Below are positions 3,242-11,385 of a stretch of 38,756 bases of DNA, piece by piece. Under the pieces are notes generated by a model that was given only the letters and a program-made list of their open reading frames with translations, was not told where the DNA came from and searched no databases. Positions within the stretch are counted from its first letter, which is position 1, and the number at the start of each line of letters is the position of its first letter. A program made the translations under genes and the position numbers. Source of the DNA: a virus (taxonomy: Duplodnaviria > Heunggongvirae > Uroviricota > Caudoviricetes); the IMG/VR virus record IMGVR_UViG_646311923_000010; one strand, given 5' to 3'.

Positions 3242-3553
3242 TTAGCCGGGCTGTGTGCCAGTCTTGCGGGGTTTTTGAGAAGGCGATGTGCTTTTTGGCC
3301 CATCAGGGGAGAGAGACGGACTGATCTGCCCAGCAGCCTCATTTGTTTTTCCCGTCATAAGCCATATAGTGTATTTTTCGAAATCCTTAGAATTAATTAC
3401 GCGATCAACAACGCTTAAACCAACCTCTCTTTTACCGCTCTCATAATTCTTTATAGTTCCGAGATTTATCCCAGTAACATCTGCAAACTCAGCTTGAGTT
3501 AACCCTTCACTTTTCCGTATCTCTTTCAGTTTTTTTTCGTACCCACTTGACAT
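3242..3553 (-). CDS. C: Immunity repressor, P2 C-like HTH protein
   Basis: 103-aa ORF directly upstream of int on the same strand; helix-turn-helix segment LTQAEFADVTGINLGTIKNYESG; GGAG 6 nt upstream of ATG. Confidence 0.8.
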   Translation of the reverse strand: MSSGYEKKLKEIRKSEGLTQAEFADVTGINLGTIKNYESGKREVGLSVVDRVINSKDFEKYTIWLMTGKTNEAAGQISPSLSPDGPKSTSPSQKPRKTGTQPG

Positions 3554-3644
3554 GGTGGTCTCCAGACGACTAAATTAACCCTAAAAGTCGCCTAGAGACG
3601 ACTTTTAGCAACAAATAACCACAGACTGAACAGGTTATCACATC
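3554..3644. promoter_or_regulatory. Divergent early promoter/operator region between C and cox-like gene
   Basis: Perfect 10-bp inverted repeat CTAAAAGTCG (3581-3590) / CGACTTTTAG (3599-3608) with 8-bp spacer, plus a related GACGACTAAA copy upstream; sits between divergent genes. Confidence 0.5.
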
Positions 3645-5932: not shown

Positions 5933-5997
5933 GCACCATCAACCACCAGGAATTACATCCATCATCATTTCCGAGATGCCAACAGGCTCTTCACAGT

Positions 5998-6465
5998 TCA
6001 GAAACTGCACAACCAGCAAATTAACCTTTCGGAGTAACGCAAATGTTCGCTGGCAGACAACCCAACAGATGCACTCGCTTTGTTTTTTGCGGGCCTGACA
6101 ATCGCTTTCATGTATGCGCTGTTCGTTTCTTCCAGATGCAGAATGCGCTCAGTGAGGCGTTCAGTGGTCATAAAATCCCTTTGCGTAATCAGACGCAGAT
6201 AGCTCTGTTTCTGCCAGCACGCCAGTTCGGCGACGAATTCACACTTGCTGCAAAACCAGGAAAAACCAAAAAACACCAGTCCGCAAAGACTCATCAGGGC
6301 AGGGAACTCAATCAGAAGAAAAGACAACACCGCAGCAATCAAGGCTCCAGAGCGCAGCACAAAAGCGGCCTTGTTGTTGAGTATGAAAACCATCTCTTCC
6401 AGCCAGTAGCTGTACCACAGATGGAAAAAAATCTTCTTGTCTGCTTGCTCCATAGCAACAGGCAT
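5998..6465 (-). CDS. Membrane protein (two predicted TM helices) encoded antisense to the early operon
   Basis: ORF 5998..6471; ATG at 6465 with GGAGG 6 nt upstream; host-like codon usage; hydrophobic stretches LRSGALIAAVLSFLLIEF and LMSLCGLVFFGFSWF. Confidence 0.55.
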   Translation of the reverse strand: MPVAMEQADKKIFFHLWYSYWLEEMVFILNNKAAFVLRSGALIAAVLSFLLIEFPALMSLCGLVFFGFSWFCSKCEFVAELACWQKQSYLRLITQRDFMTTERLTERILHLEETNSAYMKAIVRPAKNKASASVGLSASEHLRYSERLICWLCSF

Positions 6466-6599
6466 AAACAACCTCCATTGTTAATAAACGCCGCTATCCT
6501 TCGGCGCATTCCATTTTTGCGCCGCGATTATACATACTTCAGCACGCAACACAAAAACCGCTTGCCAGCGCTCGTTGAGTCGGGTTACATTTCCGCTGC

Positions 6600-6815
6600 A
6601 CCTCATAAAACGGGTGCCGGGATTCTCAACCCGCTGACTACACACGCGCACAACCGCGCCAGCGGTTTTTTTGTGCGTACTGTATTGCCACGTCTTTTTC
6701 GCGTCAGAATTATGGCGGGGCGTACGGGGCCGACTTCGGTCGGGCCGGGATCGTGTGTAGCCGGTGTTGAGAACCCCGTACGTCTCGCCACCCCAAGATT
6801 CTCAACTCTGGATGG
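6600..6815 (+). other. Structured intergenic region with long-range inverted repeats; candidate small RNA or regulatory element
   Basis: TTCTCAAC...CTACACACG (6622-6645) repeated inverted as CGTGTGTAG...GTTGAGAA (6750-6771) and again directly at 6797-6811; CGTACGGGG/CCCCGTACG stem; CCGAC-UUCG-GUCGG hairpin. Confidence 0.3.
6652..6672 (+). terminator. Orphan rho-independent terminator (plus strand) within the structured intergenic region
   Basis: AACCGC-GCCA-GCGGTT stem-loop followed by a 7-T run; no plus-strand ORF ends immediately upstream. Confidence 0.5.
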
Positions 6816-6851
6816 TGAGTTTTCAAAACTTACTATACACGAGGCCACGTC

Positions 6852-7082
6852 ATGGCAAACCGCATGCAACAGCGCGCCCGCGCTGAGCGTATTCACATCC
6901 GCAGCGAAATCAACCGCAGACTTTTTCGCGCAACACGCGTCGCGCAAATCATGCACATCAATATGTTGCATGAGCGCAGCCACGCACTATCAAACATTTA
7001 TTCCGCCTCTGTTTTCAGCTATCTGGCGGATGATCTGCACGAGCTTCAACAGCTCATCCAGCAGCAAAACAAACTCCATTAA
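6852..7082 (+). CDS. Hypothetical early-region protein
   Basis: 76-aa ORF with GAGG upstream of ATG. Confidence 0.4.
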   Translation: MANRMQQRARAERIHIRSEINRRLFRATRVAQIMHINMLHERSHALSNIYSASVFSYLADDLHELQQLIQQQNKLH

Positions 7083-7154
7083 TTCCTGTTCCGGGCCTTT
7101 CCTGCACCTTGCGGCGGGAGGCCTTCGCACATCTGTAACAAGAGGATTGCCGCA

Positions 7155-7520
7155 ATGATTCTCGCCAACGACTTTCTTGAATACCTGCTCAACACAGAGC
7201 GTGATCTTGCCGCTCGCGTGCGTGATCGTTATGACATGTACCTGAAATCCCTGCCTGTACCGCAGCTCGCTGACGGAAAGATTGTTATTGATGGTCGCTA
7301 CATGATTGACAGCCACGAGGGAAATTACAGGCTTTACCGCATTGAAGGTGGCACCCCGTCCGTTATTGGCATTTACCAGCGCCCATCCTCTGCAATCGTC
7401 GATGTGATTGCAGACAGCATCCGCATCACACATCGCCATACCGACACAGAAGACACCGTGCTGGAAATTCAGCGGCTGGCTACAGTCTGCCGCGACACCC
7501 TGAATGGCATGACGAAGTAA
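7155..7520 (+). CDS. Hypothetical early-region protein directly upstream of gene A
   Basis: 121-aa ORF; AGAGGA RBS upstream; 6-nt gap to A start. Confidence 0.5.
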   Translation: MILANDFLEYLLNTERDLAARVRDRYDMYLKSLPVPQLADGKIVIDGRYMIDSHEGNYRLYRIEGGTPSVIGIYQRPSSAIVDVIADSIRITHRHTDTEDTVLEIQRLATVCRDTLNGMTK

Positions 7521-7526
7521 ATCACT

Positions 7527-10349
7527 ATGACGGCAGAGTACATCAGGGACTGGCAACAACCGCGCCACGCAGTGGGGCGTGAAGGAACGGGGATCCCCGC
7601 TCCTAAATCCGCGCTTTCCTCCTGGCTGGATGCCTACCGGGTAGAGAACGAGCGCCGCCAGGAAATGGCTGATGCGGCGTTCTCCGCCACGCCGCTGGGC
7701 AACCTGATTAATAAAAACCTGGACGCACAGGAAAAACAGGACAAAACCATCACACTGGCAGGAGACGCCAGAAAACAGGCACGCGGCGCGGTGGATGAAG
7801 CCATGGCCTCGCTGCGCCTGCTGCCGTCCTATCTGCGCGATCCGCTTATTCGCCACCTCTCCTTCCTGCGCAAAAAACAGGAAGCCGATCGCCGGAAAGG
7901 CAAAAAGAGCTGGCAGGCGGAACGCTATGCACGCGGAACCCTGCGCAAAATATTCGAACGTCTGGACCGCACCGACCACCGCTGGCTGACACCGGGTTAT
8001 CGCTCCCTTGCCGGACGCGAACGCCTGGATGATTTGCTTTACCTGCCGCAGCTCAACAAACACCAGATACAGACGCTGGCCACCATGACGGCGGCGATGT
8101 TCAGCAGCACTTTCGAAAAACTCTGCGATGGCTTTGGCGCGACCGATGGCGAGCTGACCATGGATGTAACGCTGAAGGCGTATCAGATGCTGGCCCGCAT
8201 GGCGTTACACCTGCACGCCATGCCTCCACATTATGACGCACTGACAACAGACAAAGACCGGAGGAACGAACCGGACACGGAGCTGCTGCCGGGTGCAATC
8301 CTTCGCCTGACCTGTGCGGAATGGTGGAAACGCAAACTGTGGCTGTTACGTTGCGAGTGGCGGGAAGAACAACTCCGCGCCGCCTGTCTGGTTTCCAGAA
8401 AAACATCGCCCTATCTGAGTCAGGACGCATTAAGCGAGTTTCGCGCGCAGCGCGAGAAAACACGCGATTTCCTGAAAAGTTTCATGCTGGAAAACGAAGA
8501 CGGGTTCACGATTGATCTCGAGACAGTGTATTACGCGGGAGTAAGTAACCCGGTTCACCGTAAGGCAGAAATGATGGCCACCATGAAGGGGCTGGAACTT
8601 CTGGCCGAAGCCCGTGGCGACAGAGCGGTGTTTCTGACTGTCACCTGCCCGTCAAAATACCACGCCACAACAGAGAACGGTAATCCGAATCCCAAATGGA
8701 ACGGGGCCACCATGCGCGACTCCAGCGATTACCTGGTTAACACGTTTTTTGCGGCAGTCCGCAAAAAACTGAACCGCGACGGTCTGCGCTGGTATGGCAT
8801 CCGCACGGTGGAGCCTCACCATGACGGCACCGTGCACTGGCATATGATGGTCTTTGCTCATCCGGAAGAAATCGACACCATTGTGTCCCACACCCGCGAT
8901 ATTGCCATTCAGGAAGATCGTCACGAGCTGGGTGATGATATTACCCCACGCTTTAAGGCAGAGTACGTCGACGGTTCGAAAGGTACGCCGACCAGCTACA
9001 TCGCCACCTACATCGGAAAGAACCTGGACAGCCGCGCCGTGGGTGGCATTGACCCGAAAACAAGCAAGCCACGCGTTGATCACGAAACCGGAAAATCAAT
9101 GGCCGAGAGCGTGGAACGCGCCATCGGCTGGGCGCGCCTTCACCGCGTCCGCCAGTTCCAGTTCTTTGGTATCCCCTCCCGTCAGGTATGGCGTGAACTC
9201 CGCCGCCTTGCCAGTCAGATGGCCCGCAACCCGGAAGGTCCACAACGTCTGGAAAATGACGCAATGGATGCGGTACTCGCTGCCGCTGATGCCGGGTGTT
9301 TTGCCACCTACATTGAGAAACAGGGTGGCGTACTTGTTCCACGCAAGGATTACCTGATTCGCACCGCCTACGACCTCGCAGAAGAGCTGAACGATTACGG
9401 CGAGCAAAGCGTACAGATTTACGGGATCTGGTCGCCACAAATCGGGGAATCTTCCCGCGTGTGCACGCACCCGGATAACTGGAAGCTGGTAAGACGTAAA
9501 CCGGAAGCGGAAGACAGCGCCCGCGAAAATGGTTTTGACCTTCAGGGCGGCCCTGCCGCCCCTTGGACTCGTGGCAATAACTGTCCCCGTGTACAGGAAA
9601 CGAACAACAACGGGACAGAACAGCCGGAAGAACGGCCAGCACCGTGGCCGCAGCTCCCTGATGGCGTTGAAGTGAACGAATGGATGCGCTCACTGAAACG
9701 GCACGAACGCCGGGCGCTGATGCGTTCGCTTCGTGACAAACAGGCAAAAAACAGCAGTGATGAAATGCAGAGCTGGACACAGAGCCGCAAACAGCAGCGG
9801 CCTTTGCCTGATAACCACGAATTACTCGCTAAAGAATGGCGGGAATCTGCCGAATCTCTCGGCCTGCATATCGGTGAACAGCAGATGCAGCACCTGTTAC
9901 GGGGCGGCAGCCTGTACGTTGACGGCAGCATCATTGCACCGCAGGGATTTGAAATTGTACGCAAACCAGATACCCGCCCGGACAGCCGAATCACGCAGCT
10001 CTGGCAGCGCCTGAGCCGTAATCACGGCGTAAGCAGCACAGAGATCCGCCATAACCCGGTCGCCAGCTATCTGGAACAACTGGGGGCATCAGACCCCGAA
10101 GCCGCCGCACGTCTGGCATCCACACTTCAGCAGGACCAGAACACCATGAAAACCCCCGTTACCGTGCTTTCTGACATGCTGCGCGCCATCCGTGACGCAG
10201 AGCACGCACAGAGAATCAGTGAAACCACTGAACGCGCCCACCGCAAAGCAGACCTGCTGCGGGGTAGCCTGACCAGTGGAAACAAAAAACAGACAGAAAC
10301 GGGACTCACAAATCCCGTAAATGAGCAAAAAACGCGCCGCGATATATGA
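7527..10349 (+). CDS. A: Rolling-circle replication initiator endonuclease, P2 gpA family
   Basis: 940-aa ORF; HUH-type motif VHWHMMVFA and tyrosine pair YIATYIGKNLD characteristic of gpA-type nicking proteins; canonical position in P2 early operon. Confidence 0.85.
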   Translation: MTAEYIRDWQQPRHAVGREGTGIPAPKSALSSWLDAYRVENERRQEMADAAFSATPLGNLINKNLDAQEKQDKTITLAGDARKQARGAVDEAMASLRLLPSYLRDPLIRHLSFLRKKQEADRRKGKKSWQAERYARGTLRKIFERLDRTDHRWLTPGYRSLAGRERLDDLLYLPQLNKHQIQTLATMTAAMFSSTFEKLCDGFGATDGELTMDVTLKAYQMLARMALHLHAMPPHYDALTTDKDRRNEPDTELLPGAILRLTCAEWWKRKLWLLRCEWREEQLRAACLVSRKTSPYLSQDALSEFRAQREKTRDFLKSFMLENEDGFTIDLETVYYAGVSNPVHRKAEMMATMKGLELLAEARGDRAVFLTVTCPSKYHATTENGNPNPKWNGATMRDSSDYLVNTFFAAVRKKLNRDGLRWYGIRTVEPHHDGTVHWHMMVFAHPEEIDTIVSHTRDIAIQEDRHELGDDITPRFKAEYVDGSKGTPTSYIATYIGKNLDSRAVGGIDPKTSKPRVDHETGKSMAESVERAIGWARLHRVRQFQFFGIPSRQVWRELRRLASQMARNPEGPQRLENDAMDAVLAAADAGCFATYIEKQGGVLVPRKDYLIRTAYDLAEELNDYGEQSVQIYGIWSPQIGESSRVCTHPDNWKLVRRKPEAEDSARENGFDLQGGPAAPWTRGNNCPRVQETNNNGTEQPEERPAPWPQLPDGVEVNEWMRSLKRHERRALMRSLRDKQAKNSSDEMQSWTQSRKQQRPLPDNHELLAKEWRESAESLGLHIGEQQMQHLLRGGSLYVDGSIIAPQGFEIVRKPDTRPDSRITQLWQRLSRNHGVSSTEIRHNPVASYLEQLGASDPEAAARLASTLQQDQNTMKTPVTVLSDMLRAIRDAEHAQRISETTERAHRKADLLRGSLTSGNKKQTETGLTNPVNEQKTRRDI

Positions 10350-10425: not shown

Positions 10426-11385
10426 ATGAAAATTTGTATCGACGACGGCTCCACCAACATCAAGCTGGCATGGACTGAGAACGGCGAACGCCGCAACGCC
10501 ATCAGCCCGAACAGCTTCAAGTCGGAATGGTCTGCGCCGTTCGGTGGTACGCAGCCCGCGAACTACATGCTTGATGGCGTGCGCTATGGTTTTGATCCGG
10601 TCAGCGATCGCTTTGTCCAGACGACCGACACGCAATACCAGTACAGCGATGTGAATGTCATTGCCATTCATCACGCGCTGGTCAAATCAGGCATCACACC
10701 ACAGGAAGTGGATGTGGTTGTCACCCTGCCACTGAGCGAGTATTTCGATACAAACGCACAGCCGGACATGGCCAACATCAACCGCAAAAAAGCGAACGTC
10801 ATGCGCCCGGTGGAGTACCAGAACGGCGAAGCATTCACTATCCGTAACGTACGGGTTATGCCTGAATCCATTCCGGCAGGCTTTAAGGCACTGGCTGACA
10901 TGAGTCCGTTTGAATCCCTACTGATTGTGGATTTGGGCGGAACCACGCTGGATGTGGCAAAGGTTCAGGGGCAACTGGCAGGTATCAGCCAGGTGTTTTG
11001 CGATCCACACGTAGGCGTTTCTCTGATGGCCGATGCCGTACTGTCGGTGATGGCCACTAACGGTATGCGCACCAGTCACCACATCGCCAATACCATTATC
11101 GAACATCGCCATGATGAAGCCTGGCTGCGCCAGCACATCCACAATGACGCGCATTACGCCAGCCTGATGGCGGTTATTCGTGAAAAGGAAGAAACACTGA
11201 AACAACGCGTGATCCGCGCGCTGGCGGTTTTTTCGGGTTACGGGCGGGTGATGGTTGTCGGTGGCGGGGCGGAGATTGTGGCACCCGCTATCCGCGAAGC
11301 CTGCGGAGTTAATGCGACTTTCATCGCGGACGGGGTGCCACAGTTTGCTCTGGTTAATGGGCTGTACGCAATGGACAAGGAGTAA
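10426..11385 (+). CDS. parM: ParM/StbA-like actin-fold partition ATPase
   Basis: 319-aa ORF; N-terminus MKICIDDGSTNIKLAW and motifs YSDVNVIAIHHAL, VMPESIPAG, LIVDLGGTTLD, VMVVGGGAE align with recalled plasmid R1 ParM. Confidence 0.8.
   Translation: MKICIDDGSTNIKLAWTENGERRNAISPNSFKSEWSAPFGGTQPANYMLDGVRYGFDPVSDRFVQTTDTQYQYSDVNVIAIHHALVKSGITPQEVDVVVTLPLSEYFDTNAQPDMANINRKKANVMRPVEYQNGEAFTIRNVRVMPESIPAGFKALADMSPFESLLIVDLGGTTLDVAKVQGQLAGISQVFCDPHVGVSLMADAVLSVMATNGMRTSHHIANTIIEHRHDEAWLRQHIHNDAHYASLMAVIREKEETLKQRVIRALAVFSGYGRVMVVGGGAEIVAPAIREACGVNATFIADGVPQFALVNGLYAMDKE

Follow-up and report, generated by a model that had tools for sequence, protein, structure and literature searches.

The stretch between positions 6,466 and 6,851 of the 38,756-nucleotide phage DNA analyzed here (IMG/VR record IMGVR_UViG_646311923_000010, hereafter the window) is very probably an IsrK-C4 antisense-RNA immunity (anti-immunity) cassette resembling those described in P1/P7, P4, N15 and Gifsy-1, and its RNAs would act as a lock on a small downstream gene resembling epsilon of P4. 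A scan of the whole window at Rfam gathering thresholds returned exactly two matches, isrK (RF01394) and C4 (RF01695), and both lie inside this stretch. The system itself is already known: it is curated in Rfam, has been studied experimentally in four phage groups, and carries the name "IsrK-C4 immunity system" in the literature (PMC3632133). In that work IsrK is equated with P4 seqA and C4 with the P4 CI RNA as structural homologues, and P1, P7 and N15 are treated as structurally similar (PMC3632133); the discussion of the Gifsy-1 study draws the same IsrK-C4 link (PMC4825925). A literature search found no paper on the IsrK-C4 module in P88-like phages. What is specific here is an unannotated member of the family in a P2-family prophage, the apparent direct gating of a P4-epsilon-like gene rather than icd-ant, and a large set of P88-like cassettes that represent reassorted, three-way matched specificity types.

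Positions 5,950-7,160 of the window occur with 100% identity in the chromosome of E. coli O145 str. RM9872, where the prophage carrying the region is integrated next to btuC. By blastn, positions 6,549-7,600 match Escherichia phage P88 and its relatives (Xuanwuvirus, Peduoviridae, the P2 family) at 93.6-94.8% identity. In plus-strand order, an integrase gene is followed by the minus-strand repressor gene, a Cox-like gene, small early ORFs and a MarR-type winged-helix gene. The repressor (3,242-3,553, minus strand) is of the P2 C type, with an E value of 4.6e-16 against the PDB "C protein" entries 2L49/2XCJ. On one side of the cassette lies an antisense membrane ORF (5,998-6,471, minus strand) with no PADLOC or NCBIfam match, and a perfect TATAAT on the minus strand at 6,529-6,534 is the likely promoter of this convergent ORF. 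On the other side, all on the plus strand, are the 76-aa epsilon-like ORF (6,852-7,082), orf121 (7,155-7,520; 121 aa, phrog_3237) and the gene for replication endonuclease A (7,527-10,349; Pfam Phage_GPA, 436.8 bits), with a ParM gene 3' of the latter. A tRNA/tmRNA scan of the whole window gave no match. The original prediction had described the stretch between the antisense membrane gene and the ORF at 6,852 as non-coding, and the identical RefSeq record of RM9872 agrees, with zero CDS annotated between the membrane ORF and the 76-aa ORF, although a stop-free frame (6,043-7,158) does cross it.

The first RNA of the cassette is an IsrK-type leader of about 75 nt at 6,598-6,672 on the plus strand. 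The isrK model aligned over its full length with 61.8 bits (cut-off 50; E value 5e-11 for the whole window). The leader consists of hairpin 1 (6,598-6,617), hairpin 2 (6,618-6,633), which displays the recognition box a1, and an intrinsic terminator at 6,652-6,672 (stem 6,652-6,667, T-run to 6,672), which was located independently by a terminator scan; covariation in helices 1 and 4 of the 16-phage alignment adds to the evidence for the leader. This terminator had first been noticed as an orphan with no ORF ending just upstream, which is accurate; the IsrK-like leader RNA ends with it. The Rfam model c4-a1b1 (RF03163) had no match in the window at its gathering threshold; the equivalent leader is covered here by isrK.

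A consensus scan located a promoter-like site, P_isrK, at 6,562-6,591 on the plus strand, with the -35 element TTGCCA (6,562-6,567), an 18-nt spacer and the -10 element TACATT (6,586-6,591). The -10 element ends 6 nt before the isrK start, and transcription is predicted to begin near 6,598. A -35/-10 pair is found equally distant from the isrK start in 16/16 loci compared, with differing sequences (for example TTGACG/TAGAGT in N15 and TTGACT/TATATT in Stx phages), and its position corresponds to the annotated P1c4 promoter of P1. The operator-like repeat of the C/cox region, AGACGACT, has no copy near P_isrK, so the promoter is probably constitutive; since the C/cox region shares no word of 7 nt or longer with P_isrK, nothing points to control of the leader promoter by the C repressor. 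Because the convergent membrane ORF with its likely promoter separates the cassette from the early operon in this prophage, a substantial share of the transcription of the epsilon-like gene, orf121 and A may come from P_isrK. The scan also gave two sites that were rejected. The one at 6,685-6,713 has as its -10 the AATTAT motif conserved immediately 5' of C4; the lambdoid loci, with a 24-nt spacer, share no -35, and the site was judged a chance match to a processing-site motif. On the minus strand (6,826-6,798), the -10 falls within the variable a2 box, so that the site cannot be conserved, and it too was judged a chance match.

The second RNA is a C4-type antisense RNA at 6,708-6,795 on the plus strand, matching RF01695 with 78 bits (cut-off 45; E value 8.8e-14 for the whole window) over model positions 1-87 of 87. 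A 17-bp closing stem (6,713-6,729 with 6,774-6,790) encloses a C(UUCG)G hairpin (6,730-6,743) and a second hairpin (6,744-6,765) that holds box b' in its loop (6,749-6,760). The original prediction of a structured sRNA is thereby borne out as two Rfam RNAs, both above their gathering scores in the covariance-model search and covarying among related prophages. Its UUCG-tetraloop hairpin is the one just described, and its 9-bp stem CGTACGGGG/CCCCGTACG (6,721-6,729 with 6,774-6,782) is part of the closing stem. Folded alone, the 88-nt C4 segment reaches -49.1 kcal/mol (z = -4.3; 0/200 shuffles equally stable), and its minimum-energy fold is the Rfam consensus structure of a closing stem enclosing two hairpins. 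Compensatory changes were found at 10 of the 17 closing-stem pairs and at 4 of the 5 pairs of hairpin 1, with 97-100% of alignment cells paired, and the ends of the RNA are conserved as an AAUUAU/GG junction and a CCACC 3' end. By analogy with the annotated P1 c4 RNA, mature C4 is predicted to span about 6,714-6,792 (~79 nt), and the same analogy suggests that C4 would be excised from a longer precursor and would repress downstream translation. The minimum-energy fold of the whole read-through RNA (6,598-6,870; -111.3 kcal/mol, z = -4.1) pairs a1/b1 with a'/b' in cis, an arrangement that resembles "structure A" of the Gifsy-1 study (PMC4825925).

Leader, C4 and downstream gene are connected by short recognition boxes, all on the plus strand. 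Box a1 (6,621-6,630) lies in leader hairpin 2 and box b1 (6,638-6,646) in the single-stranded linker of the leader, while box a' (6,766-6,773) occupies the C4 junction. Downstream of C4, box a2 (6,797-6,806; GATTCTCAAC) is an exact copy of a1 and the target of a', its core TTCTCAAC (6,799-6,806) being complementary to 6,766-6,773. Box b2 (6,833-6,842; CTATACACGA), the target of b', is complementary to 6,751-6,760 with one G-U pair and overlaps the Shine-Dalgarno sequence GAGG (6,841-6,844), which stands 7 nt before ATG 6,852. The order in the window is therefore -10, a1, b1, C4 (b' loop, a' junction), a2, b2 and ATG 6,852. An inverted repeat had been proposed as a single pair, 6,622-6,645/6,750-6,771; it is present, but as two blocks, 6,618-6,630 with 6,766-6,778 (13 nt, 92%) and 6,638-6,646 with 6,752-6,760 (9 nt, 100%). 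The third direct copy, placed at 6,797-6,811, is likewise real, its extent being the exact 10-mer 6,797-6,806 that matches 6,621-6,630. The fourth element, b2, had been overlooked.

The pairing of these boxes was compared across 16 non-redundant modules, namely six P88-like types, N15, six Stx/lambdoid phages, Hafnia phage yong2, P4 and P1. Box sequences vary between the phages and are complementary within each phage of the 16. In the 16-phage alignment, 94.4% of cells are paired, compared with 37-46% when the partners are slid, and 0/500 shuffles were as high. Both sides have changed in 36 of the 57 pairs, including 6/8 a1-a' and 8/9 b1-b' pairs, so the paired positions are kept among related phages through compensatory changes. 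The MAFFT alignment misplaced the a2/b2 register between lineages, and the downstream pairs were judged instead by per-locus duplex energies with non-self loci as control. For these energies, the b' loop and a' junction were set by the C4 model, independent of the target, and tested against the leader and downstream segments of every locus. A phage's own leader was the best partner in 16/16 cases and its own downstream site in 16/16, with self means of -21.8 and -22.5 kcal/mol against cross means of -11.7 and -12.5. G-U pairs are tolerated in the box pairings, which indicates pairing at the RNA level. These features exceed chance.

To survey the cassette more widely, IMG/VR was searched with the 76-aa protein, which gave 80 loci, and isrK and C4 were found directly upstream in all 80. 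The upstream RNAs were assigned by parsing 70 modules on sequence landmarks (the window included) and by confirming 17 others with Rfam. The P88-like records added were the window, P88, a 569R5-type record, Shae_phiSM and one locus each from Salmonella and E. albertii; the last two came from an 18-mer scan of species-representative genomes, in which 2 of 15 matches looked P88-like and were used. Among the ~86 P88-like cassettes, at least 16 (b', a') combinations occur, drawn from about 6 alleles of a and about 12 of b, and in every one of them a1/b1 and a2/b2 match as well. A given a allele is found alongside more than one b allele, and a given b allele alongside more than one a allele, so the boxes reassort. 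Entropy per column reaches 0.62-0.90 bits in the six boxes, against 0.18 bits for the remaining columns. The type present in the window (b' CGTGTGTAG, a' GTTGAGAA) accounts for 5/70 landmark-parsed modules, the window counted, while P88-type C4 boxes are b' CTGTAGTTG and a' TGTGGAAA.

Beyond the P88-like phages, the N15 "cA secondary immunity" region and many Stx/lambdoid phages match the window by blastn, and in 15/15 related phage loci fetched from the blastn matches isrK is followed 24-36 nt later by C4. In megablast, window positions 5,950-7,160 matched at least in part 1295 of 5426 complete E. coli genomes (about a quarter), a figure that is an upper bound for the cassette since the antisense ORF and the epsilon-like gene are part of the query as well. 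In one relative, Xuanwuvirus 520873, the whole cassette is missing, and the MarR-type gene is followed directly by an orf121 homologue and A, both of which are kept. Its absence there marks the leader, C4 and the 76-aa gene as an accessory unit and indicates that A can be expressed without the cassette in Xuanwuvirus.

The gene behind b2 encodes a protein that matches the Pfam family Derepression (PF25738) with 29.1 bits (cut-off 27) and aligns with P4 epsilon by BLASTP at 30% identity over 50 aa (E value 4e-7). Close homologues are named "derepression protein" by PGAP, and P4 epsilon is annotated as "helper derepression protein". No match was found in PADLOC, NCBIfam or PDB for the epsilon-like protein, and none in PADLOC or NCBIfam for orf121. 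The epsilon frame is the constrained one, as variable columns are distributed 20/23/38 over the codon positions and this frame has the fewest amino-acid changes. P4 epsilon acts by binding the P2 C repressor, and one may guess by analogy that the epsilon-like protein is an antirepressor of the phage's own P2 C-type repressor. It is a guess because the similarity to P4 epsilon is weak (29.1 versus 27 bits; 30% identity) and the gated gene is not an Icd/Ant pair like that of P1. Between phages, the epsilon-like proteins share 86-100% identity, and three C repressors that were compared only 31-48%, which fits poorly with a tight epsilon-repressor specificity.

Taken together with the known systems, the layout suggests the following mechanism. 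P_isrK (6,562-6,591) would fire, probably constitutively, from a start near 6,598, and most transcripts would end at the 6,652-6,672 terminator to yield the ~75-nt IsrK-like RNA showing a1/b1. Read-through transcripts would carry C4, and its excision would release a stable ~79-nt RNA that presents b' on a hairpin loop and a' at the junction; in P1, the C4 RNA is cut out by RNase P. C4 would then pair with a2 (6,797-6,806) and b2 (6,833-6,842) on the mRNA of the same operon and cover the epsilon-like ribosome-binding site. After the P1 and P4 models, blocked translation of the epsilon-like gene would lead to premature termination of the untranslated RNA and would limit orf121 and A, so that C4 may affect these two genes by polarity. 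If the epsilon-like protein is the antirepressor proposed above, the RNA would be a safety lock on lysogeny. Boxes a1/b1 of the leader would offer C4 a second site, either as an extra cis target, like seqA of P4, or as a trans decoy that lifts repression, like over-expressed IsrK of Gifsy-1. The role of the leader is ambiguous, and here it may act in cis, in trans or in both ways. The leader is essential for establishing P4 lysogeny/immunity, as cited in PMC3632133, and in Gifsy-1, over-expressed IsrK raises translation of the downstream antirepressor ~140-fold and induces the phage (PMC4825925). The latter activation fits a decoy that titrates a C4-like RNA. Hfq binding and trans activation of IsrK are experimental results reported only for Gifsy-1 (PMC4825925).

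Among the known systems, the immI locus of P1/P7 (c4, icd, ant) has the same order and spacing of parts, with promoter, a1, b1, leader terminator, C4 (b', a'), a2, b2 at the Shine-Dalgarno sequence and the first ORF. The P1 record lists P1c4, a1, b1 and the c4 RNA, then a2 3 nt after c4, and b2, with icd starting 10 nt after b2. Heteroimmunity between P1 and P7 rests on short variable boxes. P1 c4 belongs to the same Rfam family as the C4 described here (68.8 bits), but the P1 leader falls under c4-a1b1 (RF03163) and the present one under isrK (RF01394). P1 gates icd and then ant1/ant2, whereas here the 76-aa P4-epsilon-like gene comes first, followed by orf121 and A; this first ORF matches the Derepression family and no Icd or Ant family. 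P1 is a plasmid prophage, and the present element is an integrated P2-like myovirus. The immA region of N15 (cA RNA, icd, antA-C) also has isrK followed by C4, and its a' box GTTGAGAA is identical to that of the window. The b box of N15, a linear plasmid prophage, differs from the window's, and an Icd-like ORF and an Ant-type antirepressor lie downstream.

In P4 (PLE, seqA, CI RNA with seqB, seqC, epsilon, alpha), isrK matches directly after PLE with 60.8 bits and the CI RNA is a C4 match with 74.9 bits. The P4 box copies GCGTGAGAAC and TTCACAGG are repeated upstream and at the ribosome-binding site. The P4-type order is seen here, with a leader (seqA), a CI RNA, a seqC-like site, an epsilon-type gene, small ORFs and a replication gene. 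Several differences are apparent nonetheless. The first ORF after CI in P4 is Icd-like and begins MATTLTP, with epsilon coming later; this ORF is probably the nested kil/eta genes. The spacing from leader to C4/CI is ~107 nt in P4 versus 35 nt here, and the replication protein is the alpha primase in P4 versus gpA here. P4, a satellite, lacks a protein repressor, while the present prophage carries both a repressor of the P2 C type and a Cox-like gene. The isrK-orf45-anrP locus of Gifsy-1 (Salmonella), on a lambdoid backbone, is the founder of the Rfam isrK family. There, transcription stops partly at the IsrK terminator, read-through transcripts are processed to an ~80-nt RNA to which IsrK is complementary, and an antirepressor gene lies downstream (PMC4825925). 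The published Gifsy-1 model emphasizes IsrK activation and has the translation of orf45 coupled to anrP; the epsilon-like start here has no such coupled ORF, and the long frame ends at the start of orf121.

Other explanations of the stretch were weighed against the IsrK-C4 cassette. It could be protein-coding, with an ORF like that of the "Ash family" or orf45 in the stop-free frame 6,043-7,158, starting for example at ATG 6,712 within the conserved AATTATGG and overlapping orf121 by ATGA, and the conservation would then be of a protein and not of RNA. Pfam Phage_ASH (PF10554) does align exactly over 6,586-6,862, but with 22.6 bits it stays below its cut-off of 26. The frame at isrK +1 is stop-free up to the downstream ATG in 12/16 loci and is interrupted in the other 4, N15, phi346 and P13374 among them. 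Several records annotate long CDSs across the region, as "transcriptional regulator", "Ash family protein" or an N-terminally extended "antirepressor", and in Gifsy-1, orf45, which starts ~30 nt after the ~77-nt IsrK where C4 would lie, was detected as a tagged protein (PMC4825925). The variation of the region, however, consists of three-way compensatory changes in the RNA pairing boxes, and in the overlap with the epsilon-like gene the substitutions follow the epsilon frame, amino-acid changes being as numerous in the long frame as in the third, non-coding one. The "cI protein" CDS of P4 is likewise a historical annotation over the CI/C4 RNA that Rfam recognizes. A coding function is on this evidence improbable, though use of ATG 6,712, in the manner of orf45 of Gifsy-1, is conceivable. 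Translation of conserved RNA genes is the most likely source of both the "Ash" family and the older "cI protein" CDS of P4.

A purely positive control of the Gifsy-1 type, in which leader a1/b1 lock the read-through mRNA in cis through a'/b' and free IsrK-like RNA opens it in trans, with no separate C4 repressor, is also unlikely, if slightly less so. The cis pairing appears in the minimum-energy fold of 6,598-6,870, and mutational and structural data stand behind the cis-lock model in Gifsy-1 (PMC4825925). The model nevertheless leaves unexplained why a2/b2 covary with a'/b' in every lineage and why compensatory changes have preserved the C4 fold and its 17-bp closing stem. Moreover, for P1 and P4 the homologous RNA is on record as a molecule of its own, the c4 misc_RNA in the P1 record and the P4 CI RNA cited in PMC3632133, and an ~80-nt processed species was seen in Gifsy-1 as well (PMC4825925). 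C4 repression and the cis lock may well operate together. The likeness to a retron msr/msd raised in the original prediction, or a DNA-level function of the inverted repeats as an origin or recombination site, draws on a superficial layout of inverted repeats flanking a structured segment, and we consider it extremely improbable. Only isrK and C4 reach the Rfam threshold in the window, with no retron RNA family among the matches, and no reverse transcriptase is annotated within 7 kb; the original prediction had already remarked that such a gene is absent. Each repeat finds its explanation as an antisense box, including the copies at the next gene's ribosome-binding region, for which a retron offers none, and the pairings tolerate G-U pairs.

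The IsrK-C4 cassette leaves the known principle of the system unchanged. Its recognition as an RNA module corrects records that are labelled as hypothetical proteins, "Ash family protein" or "transcriptional regulator". It also ties a P4-epsilon-type gene to a C4 lock in phages with a P2 C-type repressor, the kind that epsilon attacks, and suggests a way in which these repressors, otherwise not of the SOS type, could be switched. With so many matched box combinations, the cassettes provide a natural set of orthogonal RNA repressor-target pairs. More tentatively, the P88-like IsrK-C4 lock may be a P4-style RNA immunity layer in a helper-type phage, gating an epsilon-like antirepressor and, through polarity, A. 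It is possible, though we would not favor it strongly, that the combinatorially reshuffled boxes could thereby create many RNA-defined heteroimmunity groups, allowing cross-talk with, or defence against, co-resident P4-like satellites or other prophages that carry such modules.

The IsrK-type leader RNA (isrK), the C4 antisense RNA and the epsilon-like gene share a long open register. A plus-strand frame of 371 codons (6043-7158), in the register of isrK +1, contains no stop codon as it passes through the antisense ORF, the isrK and C4 genes and then the epsilon-like gene; its end overlaps the start of orf121 in the sequence ATGA. The same register is free of stops in 12 of 16 diverse loci, Pfam 'Phage_ASH' is read in it, and orf45, the ORF after IsrK in the Salmonella prophage Gifsy-1, probably lies in it as well. 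Protein-level constraint on the frame was absent where checked.

In the lambdoid relatives cdtI, WGPS2 and mEp460, the 'antirepressor' CDS has been annotated about 600 nt too long, beginning at the cII stop codon and crossing isrK and C4. The sequence layout, in which the b2 copy of a C4 recognition box and a Shine-Dalgarno sequence precede an ATG (MATIP...), indicates that this ATG would be the true antirepressor start. The recurrence of the overlong CDS suggests that the annotation errs systematically.

In the closing stem of C4, the 3' strand CTCGCCA (6784-6790) has a possible second partner downstream, TGGTGAG (6812-6818), with which it could form a hairpin whose loop contains the a2 box. 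Among the sequences compared, P4 and phi346 have an equivalent hairpin at the same position, and its strands covary (GGCTATCGCC/GGCGATAGC in P4 and CCACCGC/GCGGTGG in phi346). Before processing, the transcript may adopt this hairpin as an alternative fold. A further variant was found in the related locus L102 (IMGVR_UViG_2582580934_000004), where the C4 copy at 236-340 is 105 nt long and has one additional hairpin. The additional hairpin bears a second b' recognition loop, ATTCTTTGCTCT, the allele of a different P88-like type, beside the copy's own GTTCTTGTGTAG. This C4 copy may have dual specificity, or it may be an intermediate of recombination or a chimera created by assembly. Other RNAs were matched in Rfam near related modules, namely 'sRNA-Xcc1' (79.6 bits) adjoining antB in the Stx-type phage P13374 (L014, 3023-3106) and STnc130 (137 bits) in a P88-like prophage, next to its integrase end (L002, 687-821).

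The minus-strand membrane ORF at 5998-6471 (155-157 aa) belongs to phrog_6315, labelled function unknown, and gave no match in Pfam, NCBIfam or PADLOC. It is an insertion in convergent orientation relative to the early operon, and P88 homology picks up again only from 6549. A perfect minus-strand TATAAT (6529-6534) and a GGAGG (6472-6476) suggest a promoter of its own, back-to-back with the promoter-like site of isrK. The ORF looks like a moron, possibly with a role in superinfection exclusion.

The intergenic region between the repressor and cox genes holds two direct copies of AGACGACT (3564-3571 and 3596-3603) at a distance of 32 bp, and these copies are candidate operators of the P2 C-type repressor; no copy was found near the isrK promoter. 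Directly after replication gene A lie a gene for the actin-like segregation protein ParM (10426-11385) and, as the next ORF, a partition or stability gene; these are plasmid-type functions, carried by an integrated, chromosomal P2-like prophage.

Escherichia phage 520873, also a Xuanwuvirus, is entirely without the isrK-C4-epsilon cassette (L017, 2229-2981), with about 140 nt from the MarR-type gene to the orf121 homologue. The annotation of this phage splits gene A into pieces. Within Xuanwuvirus, then, the cassette is accessory and mobile.
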